The position numbers were made by a program, and so were the translations under genes. From NCBI GenBank assembly GCA_001871495.1, contig MNVG01000007.1, positions 4,322 to 68,321 of the forward strand: 64,000 nucleotides of DNA. The letters are read 5' to 3'. Below the pieces are notes generated by a model. That model was not told where the DNA came from, searched no databases, and was given only the letters and a program-made list of their open reading frames with translations. Origin of the DNA: Candidatus Micrarchaeota archaeon CG1_02_51_15 (GTDB lineage Archaea; Micrarchaeota; Micrarchaeia; Norongarragalinales; UBA8480). This document shows, in pieces, positions 9,169 to 47,216 of the stretch. How positions within the stretch are numbered: the first letter of the stretch is position 1; every line of letters starts with the position of its first letter.

Positions 9169-9294
9169 GCAGGGGTGGCAGAGTCTGGTCAAACCCGCTT
9201 GTTTTTCACGGTCGAAACCAGGAGGGAACTTGATGCGCAGGACTCAGAATCCTGTGGCCTAGCGCCTGCGAGGGTTCAAATCCCTTCTCCTGCA
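9169..9294 (+). tRNA. tRNA-Leu(CAG) with a 39-nt non-canonical intron in the D-arm (between positions 22 and 23)
   Basis: Acceptor GCAGGGG pairs with CUCCUGC (one G-U). D-stem GCAG / C+(intron 9195..9233)+UGC. Anticodon arm CAGGA-CUCAGAA-UCCUG. Long variable arm. T-arm GAGGG-UUCAAAU-CCCUU. Discriminator A. The ORF 9175..9459 is spurious. Confidence 0.6.
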
Positions 9295-9488
9295 CTCTTA
9301 CTTATTAAGCTCGATTTGGCTACTGCCTTTAAGACATTCTGCAAGCCCGAAAAAGTCGTCGGCATGTCCTTCCAAGCCGCGGGATTGGCGGCGCCGATAC
9401 CTTTCCGACGGTACGCGCACTCAAACCGCGTTTATAACACAGCTTATTCTAAACTTTAAAACATACTTCACATATCAACATTAAACAC

Positions 9489-10462: not shown

Positions 10463-11845
10463 ATGAGGCTTTCGTTCCACGGCGCAGCCGGCGTTGTCAC
10501 TGGCTCTTGTTACTTGCTTGAAACAGCAAACAGCAGGGTACTAGTCGACTGCGGCATGTTCCAAGGCTCGAAGAACGTCACCCGCTTGAATTACGAGCCC
10601 TTCAACTTCGACGCATCCAAAATCCAGTACTTGCTGCTTACGCACGCACACATTGACCACTCCGGATTGATTCCCAAGTTGGTAAAGCACGGTTTCAGGG
10701 GAAGGATTTTTGCAACGCGGCCCACAGTCGACTTGGCGAAAATCATGCTTGAAGATTCTGCGAATATAGCCGTACAAGACACGGAGCACGAAAACAAACG
10801 CAGGCTGCGCGCAGGCCTCCCGCCAAGAAAGCCGCTTTACGGCCTTCCGGAAGTAAAAGCAGCCTGCAAACTATTCACTGCTAAAGAATACGACGCACGT
10901 TTTGACTTGACAAACGGAATAGCAGTGCGTTTTCAAGACGCGGGGCACATCCTCGGTTCAGCCATTGTTGAAGTCTGGGTCACTGAAGCAGGTAAGACCA
11001 ACAAAATAGTTTTCTCAGGCGACTTAGGCCAGACAAACACACCGATAGTGCCAGACCCCACGCCAATAAACGACGCGGACTTCGTGGTAGTCGAATCGAC
11101 TTACGGAGACCGTTTGCACGCGGACTCCGGAATAAGGGAAGAACTTTTCGCCAAGGAAGTCAACGACACGTTCAAAAAAGGCGGCAAACTGATGATTCCA
11201 TCGTTCGCAATCGAAAGGACGCAGGAACTCCTGTATTACTTGAAGAGAATAGAACGCGACAAAAGACTGCCTGCAGAAAAAGTGTTTCTCGACAGCCCGC
11301 TTGCCATAAAAGCCACTGAAGTATTCAAGAAAAACATGGCTTACGCAGAACCCGAGCTCAAACAAGAATTTTCAGACCCGTTTAACCTAAGGCAATTGAC
11401 TTACCTCAAAAGCACGCAGGAATCCAAGTCATTAAACGAATACAAGCGACCGTGCATAATAATCGCAGGAAGCGGAATGTGCACCGCCGGAAGAATAAGG
11501 CACCACTTGAAGCACAACCTGTGGAAACCGGAGAACACGGTTTTGTTCGTGGGTTATCAAGCAGAAGGAACGCTGGGCCGCCTAATCCTTGAAGGCGCGA
11601 AGACAGTCCGCATGATGGGCACTGAAGTCGCAGTAAAATCGAGAGTAAGCAGAATGGAAAGCTTCTCATCCCACGCCGACTCCCGCGAACTATTAAACTG
11701 GATGACAAACTTCACGAAAACCCCGAAAAAAGTATTCGTGACGCACGGCGAACCTGACGCAGCCAACGCACTCGCGGCGAAACTAAACGCACTCGGCTTC
11801 AAAACCTACATTCCCGCGCTGTACGAACAAACAGAGATAAAATAA
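10463..11845 (+). CDS. beta-CASP family metallo-beta-lactamase ribonuclease (aRNase J / aCPSF2-like)
   Basis: MRLSFHGAAGVVTGSC start. HAHIDHSG MBL motif 2. beta-CASP region. C-terminal HGE motif. The ORF-track N-terminal extension 10358..10462 is probably not translated. Confidence 0.8.
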   Translation: MRLSFHGAAGVVTGSCYLLETANSRVLVDCGMFQGSKNVTRLNYEPFNFDASKIQYLLLTHAHIDHSGLIPKLVKHGFRGRIFATRPTVDLAKIMLEDSANIAVQDTEHENKRRLRAGLPPRKPLYGLPEVKAACKLFTAKEYDARFDLTNGIAVRFQDAGHILGSAIVEVWVTEAGKTNKIVFSGDLGQTNTPIVPDPTPINDADFVVVESTYGDRLHADSGIREELFAKEVNDTFKKGGKLMIPSFAIERTQELLYYLKRIERDKRLPAEKVFLDSPLAIKATEVFKKNMAYAEPELKQEFSDPFNLRQLTYLKSTQESKSLNEYKRPCIIIAGSGMCTAGRIRHHLKHNLWKPENTVLFVGYQAEGTLGRLILEGAKTVRMMGTEVAVKSRVSRMESFSSHADSRELLNWMTNFTKTPKKVFVTHGEPDAANALAAKLNALGFKTYIPALYEQTEIK

Positions 11846-11910
11846 GACCAAACCAAAAAAAGAAAATAAAAAAGAAAGCGGAAAAAACTCCCGCTTAACC
11901 CAAAAACTAA

Positions 11911-12441
11911 CTACGGAGTATACGTTACCCTAACGCGGACTCTGGCAACGTAACCGCCACCCAAATACTGAGCTGACATTATTCCAACCTGCAAGTTATT
12001 TATTTCACTCCAAGTCCATGCACTACTTGTGAACGGACTCATAGTATAATTAGTAGTATAATCAGCATACGCAGCAGAAAGCGGAGCCCCGCCTCCTAAA
12101 CTATGATACACGGGACTGCCTCCCGTCGATAACCTGGAATATAAATAGAACTTGTTAGTCGAATAACGCTTAGCAGTATGTATAATATTAACTTGCGAAA
12201 TAGTTCCGAATGCTAAATGATTTGATAGGGAATAACTGTCAGTTACCTTGTTCGCCGACGTATACACATAGTCGGAGGTATCTATACTAACCTCGTTTAC
12301 ACATTCAAAGGAATTAACACCACATCCCATTGCAGTAAAACCCCTAATAATATCGCTTTGAGGATATAGATACAAATAATTCGCCGATACTACTGGTAAA
12401 AGCAACATTAATGCCGCGACTATTCCTAAAACCAATTTCAT
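11911..12441 (-). CDS. secreted protein, paralog A of a two-member family (176 aa)
   Basis: Sec signal MKLVLGIVAALMLLLPVVSA, then YLYLYPQS. Two Cys. Conserved TSSAWTW and GGGYVARVRVRVTYTP C-terminus. Low GC. The 5' region is identical to that of 18512..19036. Confidence 0.7.
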   Translation of the reverse strand: MKLVLGIVAALMLLLPVVSANYLYLYPQSDIIRGFTAMGCGVNSFECVNEVSIDTSDYVYTSANKVTDSYSLSNHLAFGTISQVNIIHTAKRYSTNKFYLYSRLSTGGSPVYHSLGGGAPLSAAYADYTTNYTMSPFTSSAWTWSEINNLQVGIMSAQYLGGGYVARVRVRVTYTP

Positions 12442-12490
12442 TCTAAAACACCTCGCAAAAATTAGAAACTATATATATATACCGAACGAA
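12442..12490 (-). promoter_or_regulatory. TATA-box promoter/5' UTR, duplicated almost exactly at 19037..19085
   Basis: Minus-strand atatatatagtttctaatttttgcgaggtgttttagaATG. TATA element about 30 nt upstream of the start. A 62-nt perfect identity runs from the signal-peptide codons through the 5' UTR to the TATA box, where the two copies differ (c versus t). Confidence 0.55.
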
Positions 12491-12564: not shown

Positions 12565-13413
12565 TTATTTTTTCAGCGTTGTTTTCCCGAATGCCTTGCT
12601 TGCCCGATCGCTCCAGAACGAGGGCAGGAAGTTGGAGGCGAAACCGCGGAATTTGTCAGAGTACACGTAAACCAGTCCCTTGTACGGCGCGAGTTCCTTG
12701 AAGTCTTTGGAAACCGCGTCGTAGATTTCCTTTATTTTGCTGCGCTCGAAGTCTTTCTGCAGCAACGACGGCCGCTTCAACAACAGGTAGTCTGCCTGCC
12801 TAATCGTGTTCACTTCCAAGTTAGCGGAGTTCTGGCTTATGAAAACCACGCACAAGTCTTTGTGCCTTGCAACGAACAACAGCTTGGAAAGGAACTTGTT
12901 GGCGTCCGACATTGCCTCCCGCGAGTTAAACAGGATGCCTCCCTCGTCAACTAACAGGACGGAATTGTTCGGGACTTCGTCCACGTCGTTAACGCAGCGG
13001 ACCCACGCGGGAAGCCCCGCGTCTTGGAAGCCGATTGCGTAAGTTTTCCTTCCGCGGATAGCCCAATTTTCAAGCAGGTACATTCCCAATCCCGACTTTC
13101 CTGCCCCGCGGGCGCCGAGGATTATTCCAACAGTACTTTTGGATGAGTAAAGCCATTTTTCAAACGCCTGCACGCTTCCCTCGAATGCCTTTACTTCCGC
13201 AAGCGGCAAATTTACGGGCTTGGGCGCGGCGGCTTCGGCGGCCTTGCGGGAAGCAATGAAAACGCGGTTACCCAACCACGCGGCCAAACTGAGTGCCGCA
13301 GCCCAAACGAGCTTTGCAACCCACTTTAACCCCTTGAAGACGGTTAAGAACAACCATTTAACAAGGCCGTACAATAGCCCGATGACTTTTGCGACTATTC
13401 CCTTTCTTGCCAC
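12565..13413 (-). CDS. membrane-anchored P-loop NTPase (Walker A/B), family unassigned
   Basis: N-terminal hydrophobic segments (IVAKVIGLLYGLVKWLFLTVF..., VWAAALSLAAWLG). Walker A GARGAGKSG. Walker B LLVDEGG. 282 aa. Confidence 0.6.
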   Translation of the reverse strand: MARKGIVAKVIGLLYGLVKWLFLTVFKGLKWVAKLVWAAALSLAAWLGNRVFIASRKAAEAAAPKPVNLPLAEVKAFEGSVQAFEKWLYSSKSTVGIILGARGAGKSGLGMYLLENWAIRGRKTYAIGFQDAGLPAWVRCVNDVDEVPNNSVLLVDEGGILFNSREAMSDANKFLSKLLFVARHKDLCVVFISQNSANLEVNTIRQADYLLLKRPSLLQKDFERSKIKEIYDAVSKDFKELAPYKGLVYVYSDKFRGFASNFLPSFWSDRASKAFGKTTLKK

Positions 13414-16521: not shown

Positions 16522-16708
16522 TACAGTAGCGGCTACGCGCCGCCATGCCTTGCTTTTAACCGCAACATTACTTCCGTAAACAAGCCGTAAGGAATTGACT
16601 TACCCCATTTCGAAGGACAACCGCAGTTGAACGTGCCTGCGCGACCGTAGTTTTAGGAGTTCAGCCAAATTTCTTCCAGGGACTGCTTTCGTAAGTCGCC
16701 GGAAGCCG

Positions 16709-17557: not shown

Positions 17558-18511
17558 CAGCTTGCCCAGGTTTTCCTTTAATTCCTTCCTTGAAAAAGTT
17601 TAGCCGTTGACATCGTTGACGAAATCCGTTGGAAACCGGCCTGCGTAGACTACTGGAACATTAGGTAATGTTTTCACACTATGATTTTTGGACGCGGAAA
17701 CGAATCAAATTAATGCCGCCTTACAACGAGTGGTTTAAAAACTGGTCTTGGAAAGCGAGTCTGCAAGCAAGGGAAGGGGGCGTGCTTCGGCCTTGCGCAG
17801 GTGCTCGGCGAAAGTGAAGGAGAAATTCCCATTTGTTTGGCCAGCTCTTCCAAACTCGCGTTTTAGGAATGAGTAATAACCTTTCCTGACTGCAAGAACG
17901 AAGGCATCGCGTTGTTGTGCTGCAAGGTGTTCGGAAACCAGTTTCAGCTTCAGGAAGTAAACCGAGTTGAAAACCGACGAAGCGGTTTTAGAATCCAAGT
18001 ATCTTTTGGACCTCGCCTAGTATTGCGCGTCCTCCTTCAGTAAGCTACGGAGCTTGCGCAAGTCAGCGTCAGACGGTACGATAAGCGGAACGAAGTCACG
18101 GTCGACTGCGGACACCGCAGGCAGGGCCGGAATTACTTTCGCCACTATGAGCTTTGGTAAAAGCAGGGAATCCGGCTTTGAAACTACCTCGCCAAGTGCC
18201 CAGTTGCCTGTCTTGCAAATCAAGTCGACTTTCTTTACGTTGGGTCTCGCCCGCAGGTACGAACAAACGCGTTTATGTCGGGCGCTTCCAACTCAAACAA
18301 CGTATACTCCAAGTTGTTCTTGAAGAAAGGAATAGAAATGAAACGCATCCGCGCACCCTCGTGCTTTTCAACTGATTCTATTACGAAACAATTGGGTGCA
18401 CGTACCCGAGTTCAAGGAAAACAGGACGCTTGGATTTTTTCGGCATTTTGATAAAATAAGAAAAACCTAAAATAAAAAGGAGGGGAAAGCAGGAAAACCC
18501 GCGTTATGAGC

Positions 18512-19036
18512 TTACGGAGTGTAAAACACTCTTATGCGCGTCCGGGCAACAAAGCCGCCGCCTTCGCTAATAGATCTAACTCCAGCACCAAGACTTTGAA
18601 GATCAAACCAAGTCCAAGCGCTACTAGTCACAGGGTTAATATAGTGAGTAAAATAGTGGGTAGTGTAACTTGATCCGAGCATAACTTTAACGCTCTCTAC
18701 CTTAGACCCCCAGTTCACAAGAGTAAAATTTACATGTTTGTGAGTGTCAGAATACCTCTTAGCATAGTATTCTACGCGGACAGAATTTATTGTACCTGAA
18801 AACCCTCCCGCACCAAAACTGAAGTCGTACACGTCAAGCTCGTCGTCGTAAGGCGTATACACAAAGTCGTTAGTGTTTATCGGATTCTCGTCCACGCACT
18901 GATAATTCAAAGAACATCCTTTTGGCGTCCACTCGGAATAACTAGTGTTTGATTGCGGATATAGGTAAAGATAATCCGCCGACACTACTGGCAAAAGCAG
19001 CATTAATGCCGCGACTATTCCTAAAACCAATTTCAT
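18512..19036 (-). CDS. secreted protein, paralog B (174 aa)
   Basis: Signal peptide and YLYLYPQS identical to paralog A. Conserved GC...CV.E, AKRYS, TSSAWTW and GGGFVARTRIRVFYTP. The central region is diverged. Confidence 0.7.
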   Translation of the reverse strand: MKLVLGIVAALMLLLPVVSADYLYLYPQSNTSYSEWTPKGCSLNYQCVDENPINTNDFVYTPYDDELDVYDFSFGAGGFSGTINSVRVEYYAKRYSDTHKHVNFTLVNWGSKVESVKVMLGSSYTTHYFTHYINPVTSSAWTWFDLQSLGAGVRSISEGGGFVARTRIRVFYTP

Positions 19037-19085
19037 TCTAAAACACCTCGCAAAAATTAGAAATTATATATATCCACCACGGGTG
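19037..19085 (-). promoter_or_regulatory. TATA-box promoter/5' UTR copy (see 12442..12490)
   Basis: Near-identical to the upstream region of paralog A. TATA box about 30 nt before the ATG. Confidence 0.55.
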
Positions 19086-19313
19086 GCGGCGTGTGAAAAT
19101 TGAAAACTAGTCGCCGGCAGAGACCAAATGACGGCAACGTCCATACTACTCGCGCATCAGCCACCTAATTCCAACCGCGGAGAGCCAATTACACCCACAA
19201 TACGAGACAGATTGCGTTTTTGTGAGTGTAACTCCTAAAAGTCCCTTAATTACCAAGCTTCCGCTCGGGTTTCGAAAAAAAAGCGGTAAAGAAAAAAAAG
19301 AATTAGGCGGGTT

Positions 19314-21337: not shown

Positions 21338-22678
21338 TCAGAAGCCGTCTGGGGCAGGGGCGCCTGCGTCGTCGCGAATCTGCTTGAGCTTGAGTTGGTA
21401 GGCGTTCTTGCGATAGTAGGAAGTCACGTCCTCGTCTTCAGTCCGAGTGTTTGAAGCCCAGAGCGCGATTCCTACTGCGATTCCGATTATCAACAGCACT
21501 ATCAAGCCGTCTTGCGAAAGCACGCCTGCAAACAATCCGGTTACTCCTACTTGCTTGCGCGGCGCGATTGCGGGCAACTTCTTTTCGTAGAGTTTTTCGC
21601 CTGCACTTGAAAGCACTAACAGCGGCGTTTCAGCGCCTTCGTCTGTATTTTGGCGCAAGTAAACAGTTATCGCCTTGGTTTCGCCAGGCTGTACGTCTAT
21701 TGGAGCCGGGCTAAGCACATCCCAAGTGTTCGGAATGCCTGCAATGGTTGCAGTCACCAAAGGGAGAATGTCGCTTCCGGTATTGGTTATTGTTGCAACC
21801 AAACGCATGAGCGAACCATCGGCGTCCTGTTGTGGGACCGAAACAGTTGCGGCTGCGTACGGAACAGTTGCCGATGAAGCCGCAACGTTGAAAGTAAAGC
21901 TTTTTTGGGCAACCACCTGCCGATTGTTAAGCACTTGCACGAACAAGTGGTACTGGCCTTCAGGCAGCTTCTGCGAGTGCACGTCGAAGTAAACATTCTT
22001 AGCCTCGCTGCGATCTAACGTGATTTTTTCAAGCGAGAGAAAAGGACGCAGTTCGTCAACGTCGCCTATCACGCGAATGTCGAACGTACCCGTAGCACCA
22101 TAATTGGAAATTTCCAATGGCACGCGACGCATTAGAGTAGGCTCCATCTTAAGGTAGTCCGAACGCGAATTGATCTTCAGCGAATACTCTGACGGGTCAA
22201 AGTACAAGTGCTCGCCGTTGTAGATATTGGAGTTGTCATAACCGTGGGAATACGAAGCGCATTGGCTTGAAGGGACTACCTGGACTTGAACGCTTGTTGA
22301 ACCCCGTTCTTGAACGCCGTTTGCGCTGGAAATAATTACCGTAACCGGCACTCGGAAAGTGCCTTCCAAACAGGGCGCGGAACTCAGTCCCAGCACCACT
22401 GCCTTGGAAGAACGTCCTGCAACTTCTCCGATTTCGGAATCAAGCTGTGCGTAAAGCACGCCTGCATCCGCTTGCACGGAATACGCACGGGCTTCAGCCG
22501 CTTGATTCTCGAACCAAATTACCACGCGGGCCTCAGTTGAATCCCGAATGGTCACCGAATCACTCGAAGAATGCAGCGGAAGCGCGTAAACGGCACTGGC
22601 AAAAAACAGTAGTACCAACGCGATTCCACCTGCAAGCAAAGCAAAATTTATTTTCTTCAAAGACAAATCACCCTGCAC
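21338..22678 (-). CDS. large cell-surface protein with Sec signal and C-terminal TM anchor
   Basis: 446 aa. N-terminal signal, beta-rich S/T/V ectodomain, C-terminal TM (LIVLLIIGIAVGIALWA) and charged tail. Confidence 0.5.
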   Translation of the reverse strand: MQGDLSLKKINFALLAGGIALVLLFFASAVYALPLHSSSDSVTIRDSTEARVVIWFENQAAEARAYSVQADAGVLYAQLDSEIGEVAGRSSKAVVLGLSSAPCLEGTFRVPVTVIISSANGVQERGSTSVQVQVVPSSQCASYSHGYDNSNIYNGEHLYFDPSEYSLKINSRSDYLKMEPTLMRRVPLEISNYGATGTFDIRVIGDVDELRPFLSLEKITLDRSEAKNVYFDVHSQKLPEGQYHLFVQVLNNRQVVAQKSFTFNVAASSATVPYAAATVSVPQQDADGSLMRLVATITNTGSDILPLVTATIAGIPNTWDVLSPAPIDVQPGETKAITVYLRQNTDEGAETPLLVLSSAGEKLYEKKLPAIAPRKQVGVTGLFAGVLSQDGLIVLLIIGIAVGIALWASNTRTEDEDVTSYYRKNAYQLKLKQIRDDAGAPAPDGF

Positions 22679-46665: not shown

Positions 46666-46749
46666 CTTTAGGCGGGGTTTAAATAGGGGTTTAAAATACT
46701 AATCGTAAGCATATCTGCTTGAAAATGATGATTTGGAGGGAGTGTTTAA

Positions 46750-47049
46750 GTGGTAGCCAAAAAAGGAAAGACCGCCAAGAAAATCGATACTAGTTTTAAT
46801 GTAGAAAATATAGTTGCAAGTGCGAACCTCAAAGTCGAGCTCGACTTGTTCAACATTGCAATGAACATTGACAACGTAGAATATGAACCGGAGCAATTCC
46901 CAGGCGCTATAATGCGACTCAAAGAAATCGGCACCACGTTGTTGCTCTTCAAGAACGGCAAGGTGATCTGTAGCGGTGCAAAAAACGAAAAACAAATTGC
47001 AGCCAGCATAGCAAAGGCAGTTGAATTACTCCGGGAGTATATCACGTAA
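46750..47049 (+). CDS. single-repeat TATA-box-binding-protein-like protein (half-TBP, 99 aa)
   Basis: GTG start 9 nt after a GGAGGG Shine-Dalgarno-like motif. K-rich N-tail, then exactly one TBP repeat: NVENIVASANLKVELDLFNIAMNIDNVEYEPEQFPGAIMRLKEIGTTLLLFKNGKVICSGAKNEKQ. Flanking genes leave no space for a second repeat. Confidence 0.7.
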   Translation: MVAKKGKTAKKIDTSFNVENIVASANLKVELDLFNIAMNIDNVEYEPEQFPGAIMRLKEIGTTLLLFKNGKVICSGAKNEKQIAASIAKAVELLREYIT

Positions 47050-47097
47050 TCCCGAACTAAACGAATCCTTTTTATACTTCGCGCTTCAGAATAGCTA

Positions 47098-47216
47098 GCG
47101 ACAGCGGTCATAGGAGTGGGGCAAGACCCGTTCCCTTTCCGAACACGGAAGTCACTCCCGCTTACGACTGCGCCAGTACTGTTCTGATGAACGGGAAAAC
47201 CGGTTTCTGCTGTCAC
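47098..47216 (+). rRNA. rrf: 5S ribosomal RNA (stand-alone)
   Basis: GCGACAGCGGUCAUAGG...CCGAACACGGAAGU...GCUGUCAC. Helix I pairing GACAGC/GCUGUC, conserved loop C/helix III motif. About 120 nt. The minus ORF 46746..47216 is spurious. Confidence 0.8.

Follow-up and report, generated by a model that had tools for sequence, protein, structure and literature searches.

Two genes of the tiny groundwater archaeon Candidatus Micrarchaeota archaeon CG1_02_51_15, here called A and B, raise the question of how the beginning of a gene can be the same to the last letter in two copies whose remaining sequence has gone separate ways, and of what such an arrangement could provide to the cell. Both are encoded on the minus strand of the 64,000-nt stretch of DNA that was analysed (the window; features in Table 1), at a distance of 6,595 nt from each other, and the product of gene B is deposited as a hypothetical protein of this archaeon (NCBI OIO24668.1).

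Table 1. Positions in the window of genes A and B and of the elements that they share
Feature	Positions	Strand	Description	Basis
Gene A	11911..12441	-	176 aa: putative signal peptide and single predicted jelly-roll domain	ORF, homologues, AF2 model
Gene B	18512..19036	-	174 aa, paralogue of A	ORF, sequence comparison
Perfect 63-nt block, copy A	12406..12468	-	-27 to +36 relative to the ATG	
Perfect 63-nt block, copy B	19001..19063	-	-27 to +36 relative to the ATG	
Extended 126-nt repeat, copy A	12358..12483	-	91% identical to 18953-19078	
Extended 126-nt repeat, copy B	18953..19078	-		repeat finder
TA tract of A	12470..12481	-	TATATATATATA, putative archaeal TATA box	sequence
TA tract of B	19065..19073	-	ATATATATA, putative TATA box, shorter than that of A	sequence
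GAGGTG of A	12449..12454	-	Shine-Dalgarno-like, -13 to -8	sequence
GAGGTG of B	19044-19049	-	same element as in A	
Signal-peptide coding region of A	12382..12441	-	n-region MK, hydrophobic core of 16 residues, predicted cleavage after V-S-A	
Signal-peptide coding region of B	18977..19036	-		sequence
Mature domain of A	11914..12381	-	156 aa; predicted jelly roll of galactose-binding / carbohydrate-binding-module type	
Mature domain of B	18515..18976	-	154 aa	alignment and homologues
3′ flank of A resembling that of B	11836..11885	-	T-rich, includes TCTTATTTTATC	local score
3′ flank of B resembling that of A	18450..18497	-		local score
Hairpin followed by a T run, just past the stop codon of A	11876..11896	-	terminator-like	

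Extent and reality of the shared 5′ module

The block of identity pointed out by the first-pass annotation is real, although it covers 63 nt and not 62, and its perfect coding part is shorter than the roughly 50 nt first given: it is made up of 27 nt of leader and 36 nt of coding sequence from the ATG onward, without a single difference between A and B. No further copy occurs in the window, not even with a tolerance of 3 mismatches, and 100 shuffles produced none. Upstream, one mismatch at -28 separates the block from nine nucleotides that are identical again (-37 to -29, ATATATATA), and the decay of identity that had been described beyond this point is complete, since past -41 no similarity is detectable (local score 16, against 15.7 ± 2.4 in shuffled sequences). 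All 11 of the differences within the longer repeat of 126 nt fall outside its central 63 nt. At the other end of the genes, the 3′ flanks have a T-rich similarity of about 50 nt, with a score of 34 against 18.8 ± 2.9 in shuffled sequences, of which 1 in 500 scored as high. The copied unit thus spans from about -41 to about 78 nt beyond the stop codon, and, given that the 3′ flanks are also alike, the paralogous unit has the TA box at one end and the terminator region at the other, in favor of a single duplicated transcription unit.

Several short elements lie within the block or next to it. The TA tract of A is a putative promoter element, judged by its position some 30–40 nt before the ATG; it is 12 nt long, against 9 nt in B, is longer in contig L004, and has one base changed in contig L001. 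The GAGGTG motif is probably used as the ribosome-binding site, and GGTG is found at an equal distance from the start in other genes of the window. An inverted repeat, TTCTAA-N15-TTAGAA, is also contained in the block (12441-12467 and 19036-19062), where it brackets GAGGTG and ends at the start codon; it could be the site of a regulator, or a product of chance in AT-rich sequence. A hairpin is predicted around the AUG, although it is no better than those of shuffled sequences (z = -1.15); this, and the want of any Rfam match at the position, led us to reject an RNA element in the block.

A repeat of this kind might have been created by the assembly or polishing of the sequence, through a collapsed or a copied repeat, and there are contigs that stop, start or diverge in the block or close to it: L008, which carries the upstream sequence of A, has its end within the block, the start of L001 lies 67 nt before A, L004 departs from the locus at the TA tract, and L033 is a hybrid. 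Nevertheless, a repeat of 63 nt is shorter than a sequencing read, and for both loci other assemblies and samples again join the block to the private flank and the private body that it has in the window, as the upstream sequence, block and body of A are intact in contigs L002 and L003 and those of B in L004, L005 and L007. The check for an artefact that had been proposed at first reading is therefore negative, and there is hardly any chance that the block owes its existence to the assembly. As for contig L004 (ENA ERZ909571, contig k127_112660), it continues from the upstream sequence of A into a longer TA tract and then into some 130 nt (16560-16693 of the contig) that have no match in the window or in the viral contigs, with the junction at about 12470-12481; the contig may represent a strain that varies at the TA tract, or its end may be chimeric.

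Age of the gene bodies and origin of the 5′ identity

A codon-wise comparison of A and B gives a different picture for each part of the genes: (i) in codons 1–12 both pS and pN are 0; (ii) in codons 13–29 pS is 0.51 and pN 0.11, with 16 of 17 residues identical in the protein; (iii) and finally, from codon 30 to the end pS reaches 0.72 and pN 0.45, with saturated synonymous sites and a nominal dN/dS of about 0.27. Saturation together with this ratio points to bodies that diverged long ago under purifying selection, rather than by fast adaptive change, next to a 5′ module that either is young or is being held identical. The divergence is equally distributed over the domain, with 26 of 68 positions identical in the predicted strands (38%) and 25 of 66 in the loops (38%), so that nothing in it indicates diversifying selection. 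The first-pass annotation had seen in the mature domains a diversification like that of surface antigens, and had proposed a dN/dS analysis; these values, with two copies and no silent cassettes, speak against that part of its reading. In other words, it is very improbable that the duplication was recent and that, behind a young 5′ end, the mature parts were driven apart by diversifying selection or by targeted hypermutation. Such a process would account for mature parts that are 37–41% identical next to an identical 5′ end, in proteins that are probably surface-exposed, but fast adaptive change would keep the synonymous sites similar, and a diversity-generating retroelement was rejected, since the window contains no pair of template and variable repeats and its only long direct repeat is the 126-nt one at the 5′ end of the genes.

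Past codon 29, A and B are 37.3% identical to each other and 37.6–38.3% identical to their best foreign homologues; they are mutual nearest neighbours in only about 14% of bootstraps, and in a neighbour-joining tree of 101 domains they are not paired (65/200 bootstraps). The bodies are thus as far apart from one another as from homologues in other phyla. To this is added their base composition, whose low G+C had already been remarked on: 0.405 in A and 0.434 in B, against a mean of 0.498 ± 0.028 for the 58 open reading frames of the window, with GC3 values of 0.362 and 0.434 against 0.543 ± 0.064. They are the two lowest of the window in overall G+C, A is also the lowest in GC3, and B lies 1.7 SD below the mean in GC3; that this is so despite the old divergence of the two genes may reflect a foreign origin or a special codon preference. 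Both the distances and the composition could be expected if A and B had been acquired separately, by horizontal transfer from donors of low G+C among other DPANN archaea or their viruses, in a family that is widespread in DPANN archaea and in phages, and if one of them had later received its 5′ module from the resident copy. We regard this as rather improbable. The significant similarity extends to the 3′ flanks as well; the states TSSAWTW, VARxRxRVxYTP and YLYLYPQS, which A and B share, are rare in the family, which fits one duplicated unit better; and, in any case, separate transfer would still require the same step of recombination at the 5′ end.

For the 5′ end itself, gene conversion or selection had been suggested at first reading; its distinct history stands, and conversion is likely. 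The block includes about 8 synonymous sites, and by our arithmetic the chance that all of them would remain unchanged at a pS of 0.5–0.7 is about 0.003 or less. With no difference in 63 nt that include these sites, beside a saturated body, conversion over a short tract is the best and most likely explanation, and the simplest account of an unbroken run of identical bases in such surroundings. The hybrid contig mentioned above, L033 (ENA ERZ27293351, contig k141_101367), which comes from a different assembly, bears on this point, as its positions 1-1249 correspond to 19064-19267 of the window joined to 11424-12468: 204 nt of the private upstream sequence of B, with the B variant of the TA box, are followed by the block, by the body of A with one amino-acid change (M155T), and by the gene downstream of A, and the switch from B to A is located inside the block. 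It is either a true product of recombination or deletion, or a chimera assembled from a thinly covered sample. If real, it would be the expected product of recombination between the two blocks, an event that would delete 6.6 kb including the aspartyl-tRNA synthetase; recombination at exactly the position of the block is at least suggested by this contig.

The main rival to conversion is that the 63 nt were kept identical purely by purifying selection at the nucleotide level, acting on a shared regulatory element such as the promoter-proximal sequence, the ribosome-binding region, a structure in the mRNA, or the site of a regulator or a small RNA. The block coincides with the TA box, GAGGTG, the start codon and the first codons; it contains the inverted repeat and the hairpin around the AUG; and residues 13–29, kept as protein although their synonymous sites have changed, show selection at work on the same end of the gene, which also counts against a single recent conversion as the whole story. 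Nevertheless, the known signals for promoters and initiation require a minority of the 63 positions, and an identity that continues unbroken through spacers and 8 synonymous sites, with saturated sequence for a neighbour, is unlike constraint at the level of motifs; nor do the folding score and the Rfam search give any support to a structured RNA. We consider selection as the sole cause unlikely, even if it is an alternative of some weight, and selection may well contribute, as the constraints on promoter, ribosome binding and early codons act on exactly the region of the block.

The explanation that we hold to be the probable one overall, if by no means a certain one, is an old duplicated unit with a recent conversion of its 5′ end, which would serve two binding modules exported together. 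A and B would be anciently diverged copies of one transcription unit, extending from the TA-rich promoter box to the T-rich terminator, and each would encode a small exported protein of a single domain. The 5′ module would have been homogenized recently by ectopic recombination over a short tract (gene conversion) between the two direct repeats, while residues 13–29 (the remainder of the signal peptide together with the first strand) would have been held identical as protein, either through purifying selection or because of an older conversion. The outcome would be two different binding modules with promoter, ribosome-binding region and export signal in common, which would probably be expressed and exported together and would most likely bind a glycan of the cell surface, either that of the archaeon's own envelope or that of a host cell.

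Gene conversion restricted to one domain has been described between the archaeal paralogues mtrA-1 and mtrA-2 (PMC4632066; see also PMC6053082). There, as would be the case here, one part of two paralogues is kept alike by recombination and the rest is free to differ. In A and B, unlike mtrA-1 and mtrA-2, the homogenized part would be a regulatory and export module of 63–126 nt and not a catalytic domain, and the proposed conversion is read from a single genome, where it may or may not recur.

In bacteria, the vlp and vsa genes of Mycoplasma, the vsp and vlp genes of Borrelia, and babA and babB of Helicobacter combine a shared 5′ module for expression and signal peptide with variable bodies. 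The resemblance lies in a conserved promoter, leader and signal peptide placed before divergent exported bodies, and in recombination between the copies. Unlike those systems, A and B are two copies only, both complete and each with its own promoter; silent cassettes, an invertase and demonstrated switching are all lacking, and their bodies differ by old divergence and not by ongoing diversification.

Putative export signal and predicted jelly-roll domain

The N-termini of both proteins consist of MK, followed by LVLGIVAALMLLLPVV, by SA, and by N or D and then Y. Read from the sequence, this agrees with the features of a Sec-type signal (signal peptidase I), with a likely cleavage after V-S-A; in the homologues, the first strand begins 2–4 residues after comparable signal peptides. 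The identity of the signal peptide (MKLVLGIVAALMLLLPVVSA) that had been noted is exact, with 20 of 20 residues the same in A and B and 3 synonymous differences in the coding sequence. All the anchor motifs that had been listed for the mature parts are present in both proteins. Signals of the pilin, lipoprotein and twin-arginine types were rejected, as the N-terminus contains no K/R-G/A cut site, no lipobox cysteine and no twin arginine, and no C-terminal anchor was found in the sequences of A and B. In the family, a pair of cysteines is present in the members that bear a signal peptide and the first of them is missing in the members that do not, a pattern that fits an extracellular disulfide.

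As to the mature domain, neither A nor B, nor the same region in 47 homologues, gave a match in Pfam or NCBIfam, there was none among the PDB sequences for A, for B or with a profile built from the 47 sequences, and the literature search returned nothing on this domain or on the two genes. An alignment of only two sequences gave an AF2 model with a pLDDT of 54; repeated with the 47 sequences, the prediction reached 95.9 and shows the mature domain as a beta jelly roll of the carbohydrate-binding-module (CBM) type. The structure prediction recommended by the first-pass annotation has thus provided a two-sheet jelly-roll sandwich that superposes on members of the galactose-binding-domain-like and CBM folds, and Foldseek places CBM35, CBM6 and domain III of the Cry toxins at a TM of about 0.5. 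The domain would have in common with CBM6, CBM35, CBM36, CBM32 and the F-type lectins the galactose-binding-domain-like beta jelly-roll fold. It differs from them in that its sequence matches no curated CBM model or solved structure, in that the TM is only about 0.5, and in that it stands alone, not attached to a glycoside hydrolase or other carbohydrate-active enzyme. By our reading, A and B would be exported lectin-like modules whose function is presumably one of binding. The conserved CVDE, NPxT and W residues are candidate positions for a site, no more, and, while over 90% of the family, B among them, have CVDE, A has CVNE, with N in place of a nearly invariant D at codon 49 (12295-12297), such that in A the role of this site may be lost or altered.

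The claim that the family is uncharacterised is correct in so far as it has no curated name, but it is a very large family, with a CBM-like predicted fold, and common to proteins encoded next to phage tail fibres. An exhaustive profile search collected 3,934 representative proteins at E ≤ 0.001 (418 at E ≤ 1e-10), which stand for at least as many clusters at 50% identity. Many members carry 2–7 copies of the domain; in the larger homologues it is combined with CARDB, PKD, dockerin, cohesin or FN3 domains, but not with hydrolase domains. In named genomes, the relatives are mostly from DPANN archaea (Pacearchaeota, Woesearchaeota, Nanoarchaeota, Aenigmatarchaeota), with a few from other archaea and bacteria; the DPANN homologues are isolated genes amid housekeeping genes, a context that offers no clue to function. 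A large domain family without a curated name now has a confident predicted fold.

Phage relatives, copy number and genomic setting

The family also extends to the phages. B matches PHROG 2448 at 3.7e-8, whereas A matches only PHROG 6368, at 0.0047; between these two PHROGs and members of the family the values are from 1e-10 to 1e-19, the HMM E-values as a whole ranging from 4e-8 to 1e-19, and hhalign gives a probability of 97.8% to the protein QIV65771 of the Mesorhizobium phage Cp1R7A-A1. Predicted phage proteins reach a TM of 0.74–0.85 to the AF2 model. The proteins of both PHROGs are of unknown function and about 335 aa, and in Mesorhizobium phage Cp1R7A-A1 and Brevundimonas phage Leszy the genes for homologues of this length directly follow those for tail fibres or tip attachment. 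Their C-terminal domain is homologous to that of A and B, from which they are distinguished by some 200 additional N-terminal residues, weakly concanavalin-A-like in one case, and by the absence of both the signal peptide and the first cysteine. A and B, by contrast, are proteins of signal peptide and domain alone, encoded among housekeeping genes with no prophage. QIV65771 (L010:7386-8402) ends at AGIE and is thus missing the final strand (GGGxVAQVYxxVxY), which in the cellular proteins closes the sandwich.

A broader reading would take the jelly-roll domain as a host-recognition module common to tailed phages and episymbiotic DPANN archaea, with A and B as attachment factors of two specificities, made and exported together thanks to a single 5′ cassette kept by recombination; we put this forward tentatively and think it unlikely in its full form. 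In a more modest sense, the locus is a small and clean case of mosaic evolution in a DPANN archaeon, in which a homogenized module of 63 nt would be joined to bodies as distant as those of different phyla, and the family links DPANN surface proteins with the gene clusters for host recognition in phages. This is useful for annotation and for the choice of candidates in studies of cell attachment in DPANN archaea, and it overturns nothing: partial gene conversion between paralogues and jelly-roll binding domains are both of already known kinds, and the event is fairly ordinary.

Searches for further relatives of the pair returned little. Within the 64 kb, neither the DNA search nor the profile search found copies beyond the two, and there are no silent cassettes; among 5.8 billion clusters, a word-based search for a third protein with the N-terminus of A and B retrieved only these two. 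Scanned with 39 nt of the block, the metagenome_contigs collection yielded the two known loci only, but it missed contigs L003 and L007 from JGI, which carry the block, and, as the collection is incomplete for this population, the lack of extra copies in it is weak evidence. No close relative was found through the alignment of A and B in the reference genomes or viral contigs scanned, nor did the protein search or the reference genomes contain an orthologous pair from a related species, the material for the classical comparison for concerted evolution (identity within a genome and divergence between genomes).

The genes surrounding A and B encode a beta-CASP nuclease, an unnamed P-loop membrane protein, the aspartyl-tRNA synthetase, a cupin-type glucose-6-phosphate isomerase, a radical SAM protein and the thermosome, with no recombinase or phage gene among these neighbours. 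Two sizeable reading frames next to the pair have no Pfam match: 12565-13413, of 282 aa, which has a P-loop (GARGAGKSG) and a hydrophobic segment near its N-terminus, and 21338-22678, of 446 aa. Two features of the stable RNAs of the window may also be recorded. The tRNA found by Rfam at 9169-9294 occupies 126 nt for a model of 71 positions, where ARAGORN places a tRNA-Leu(CAG) at 9218-9295, and an intron or a 5′ extension may account for the difference in length. A 5S rRNA gene is present at 47100-47215, the only rRNA gene detected in the window, and the reading frame that lies over it on the opposite strand (46746-47216) is probably not a gene.
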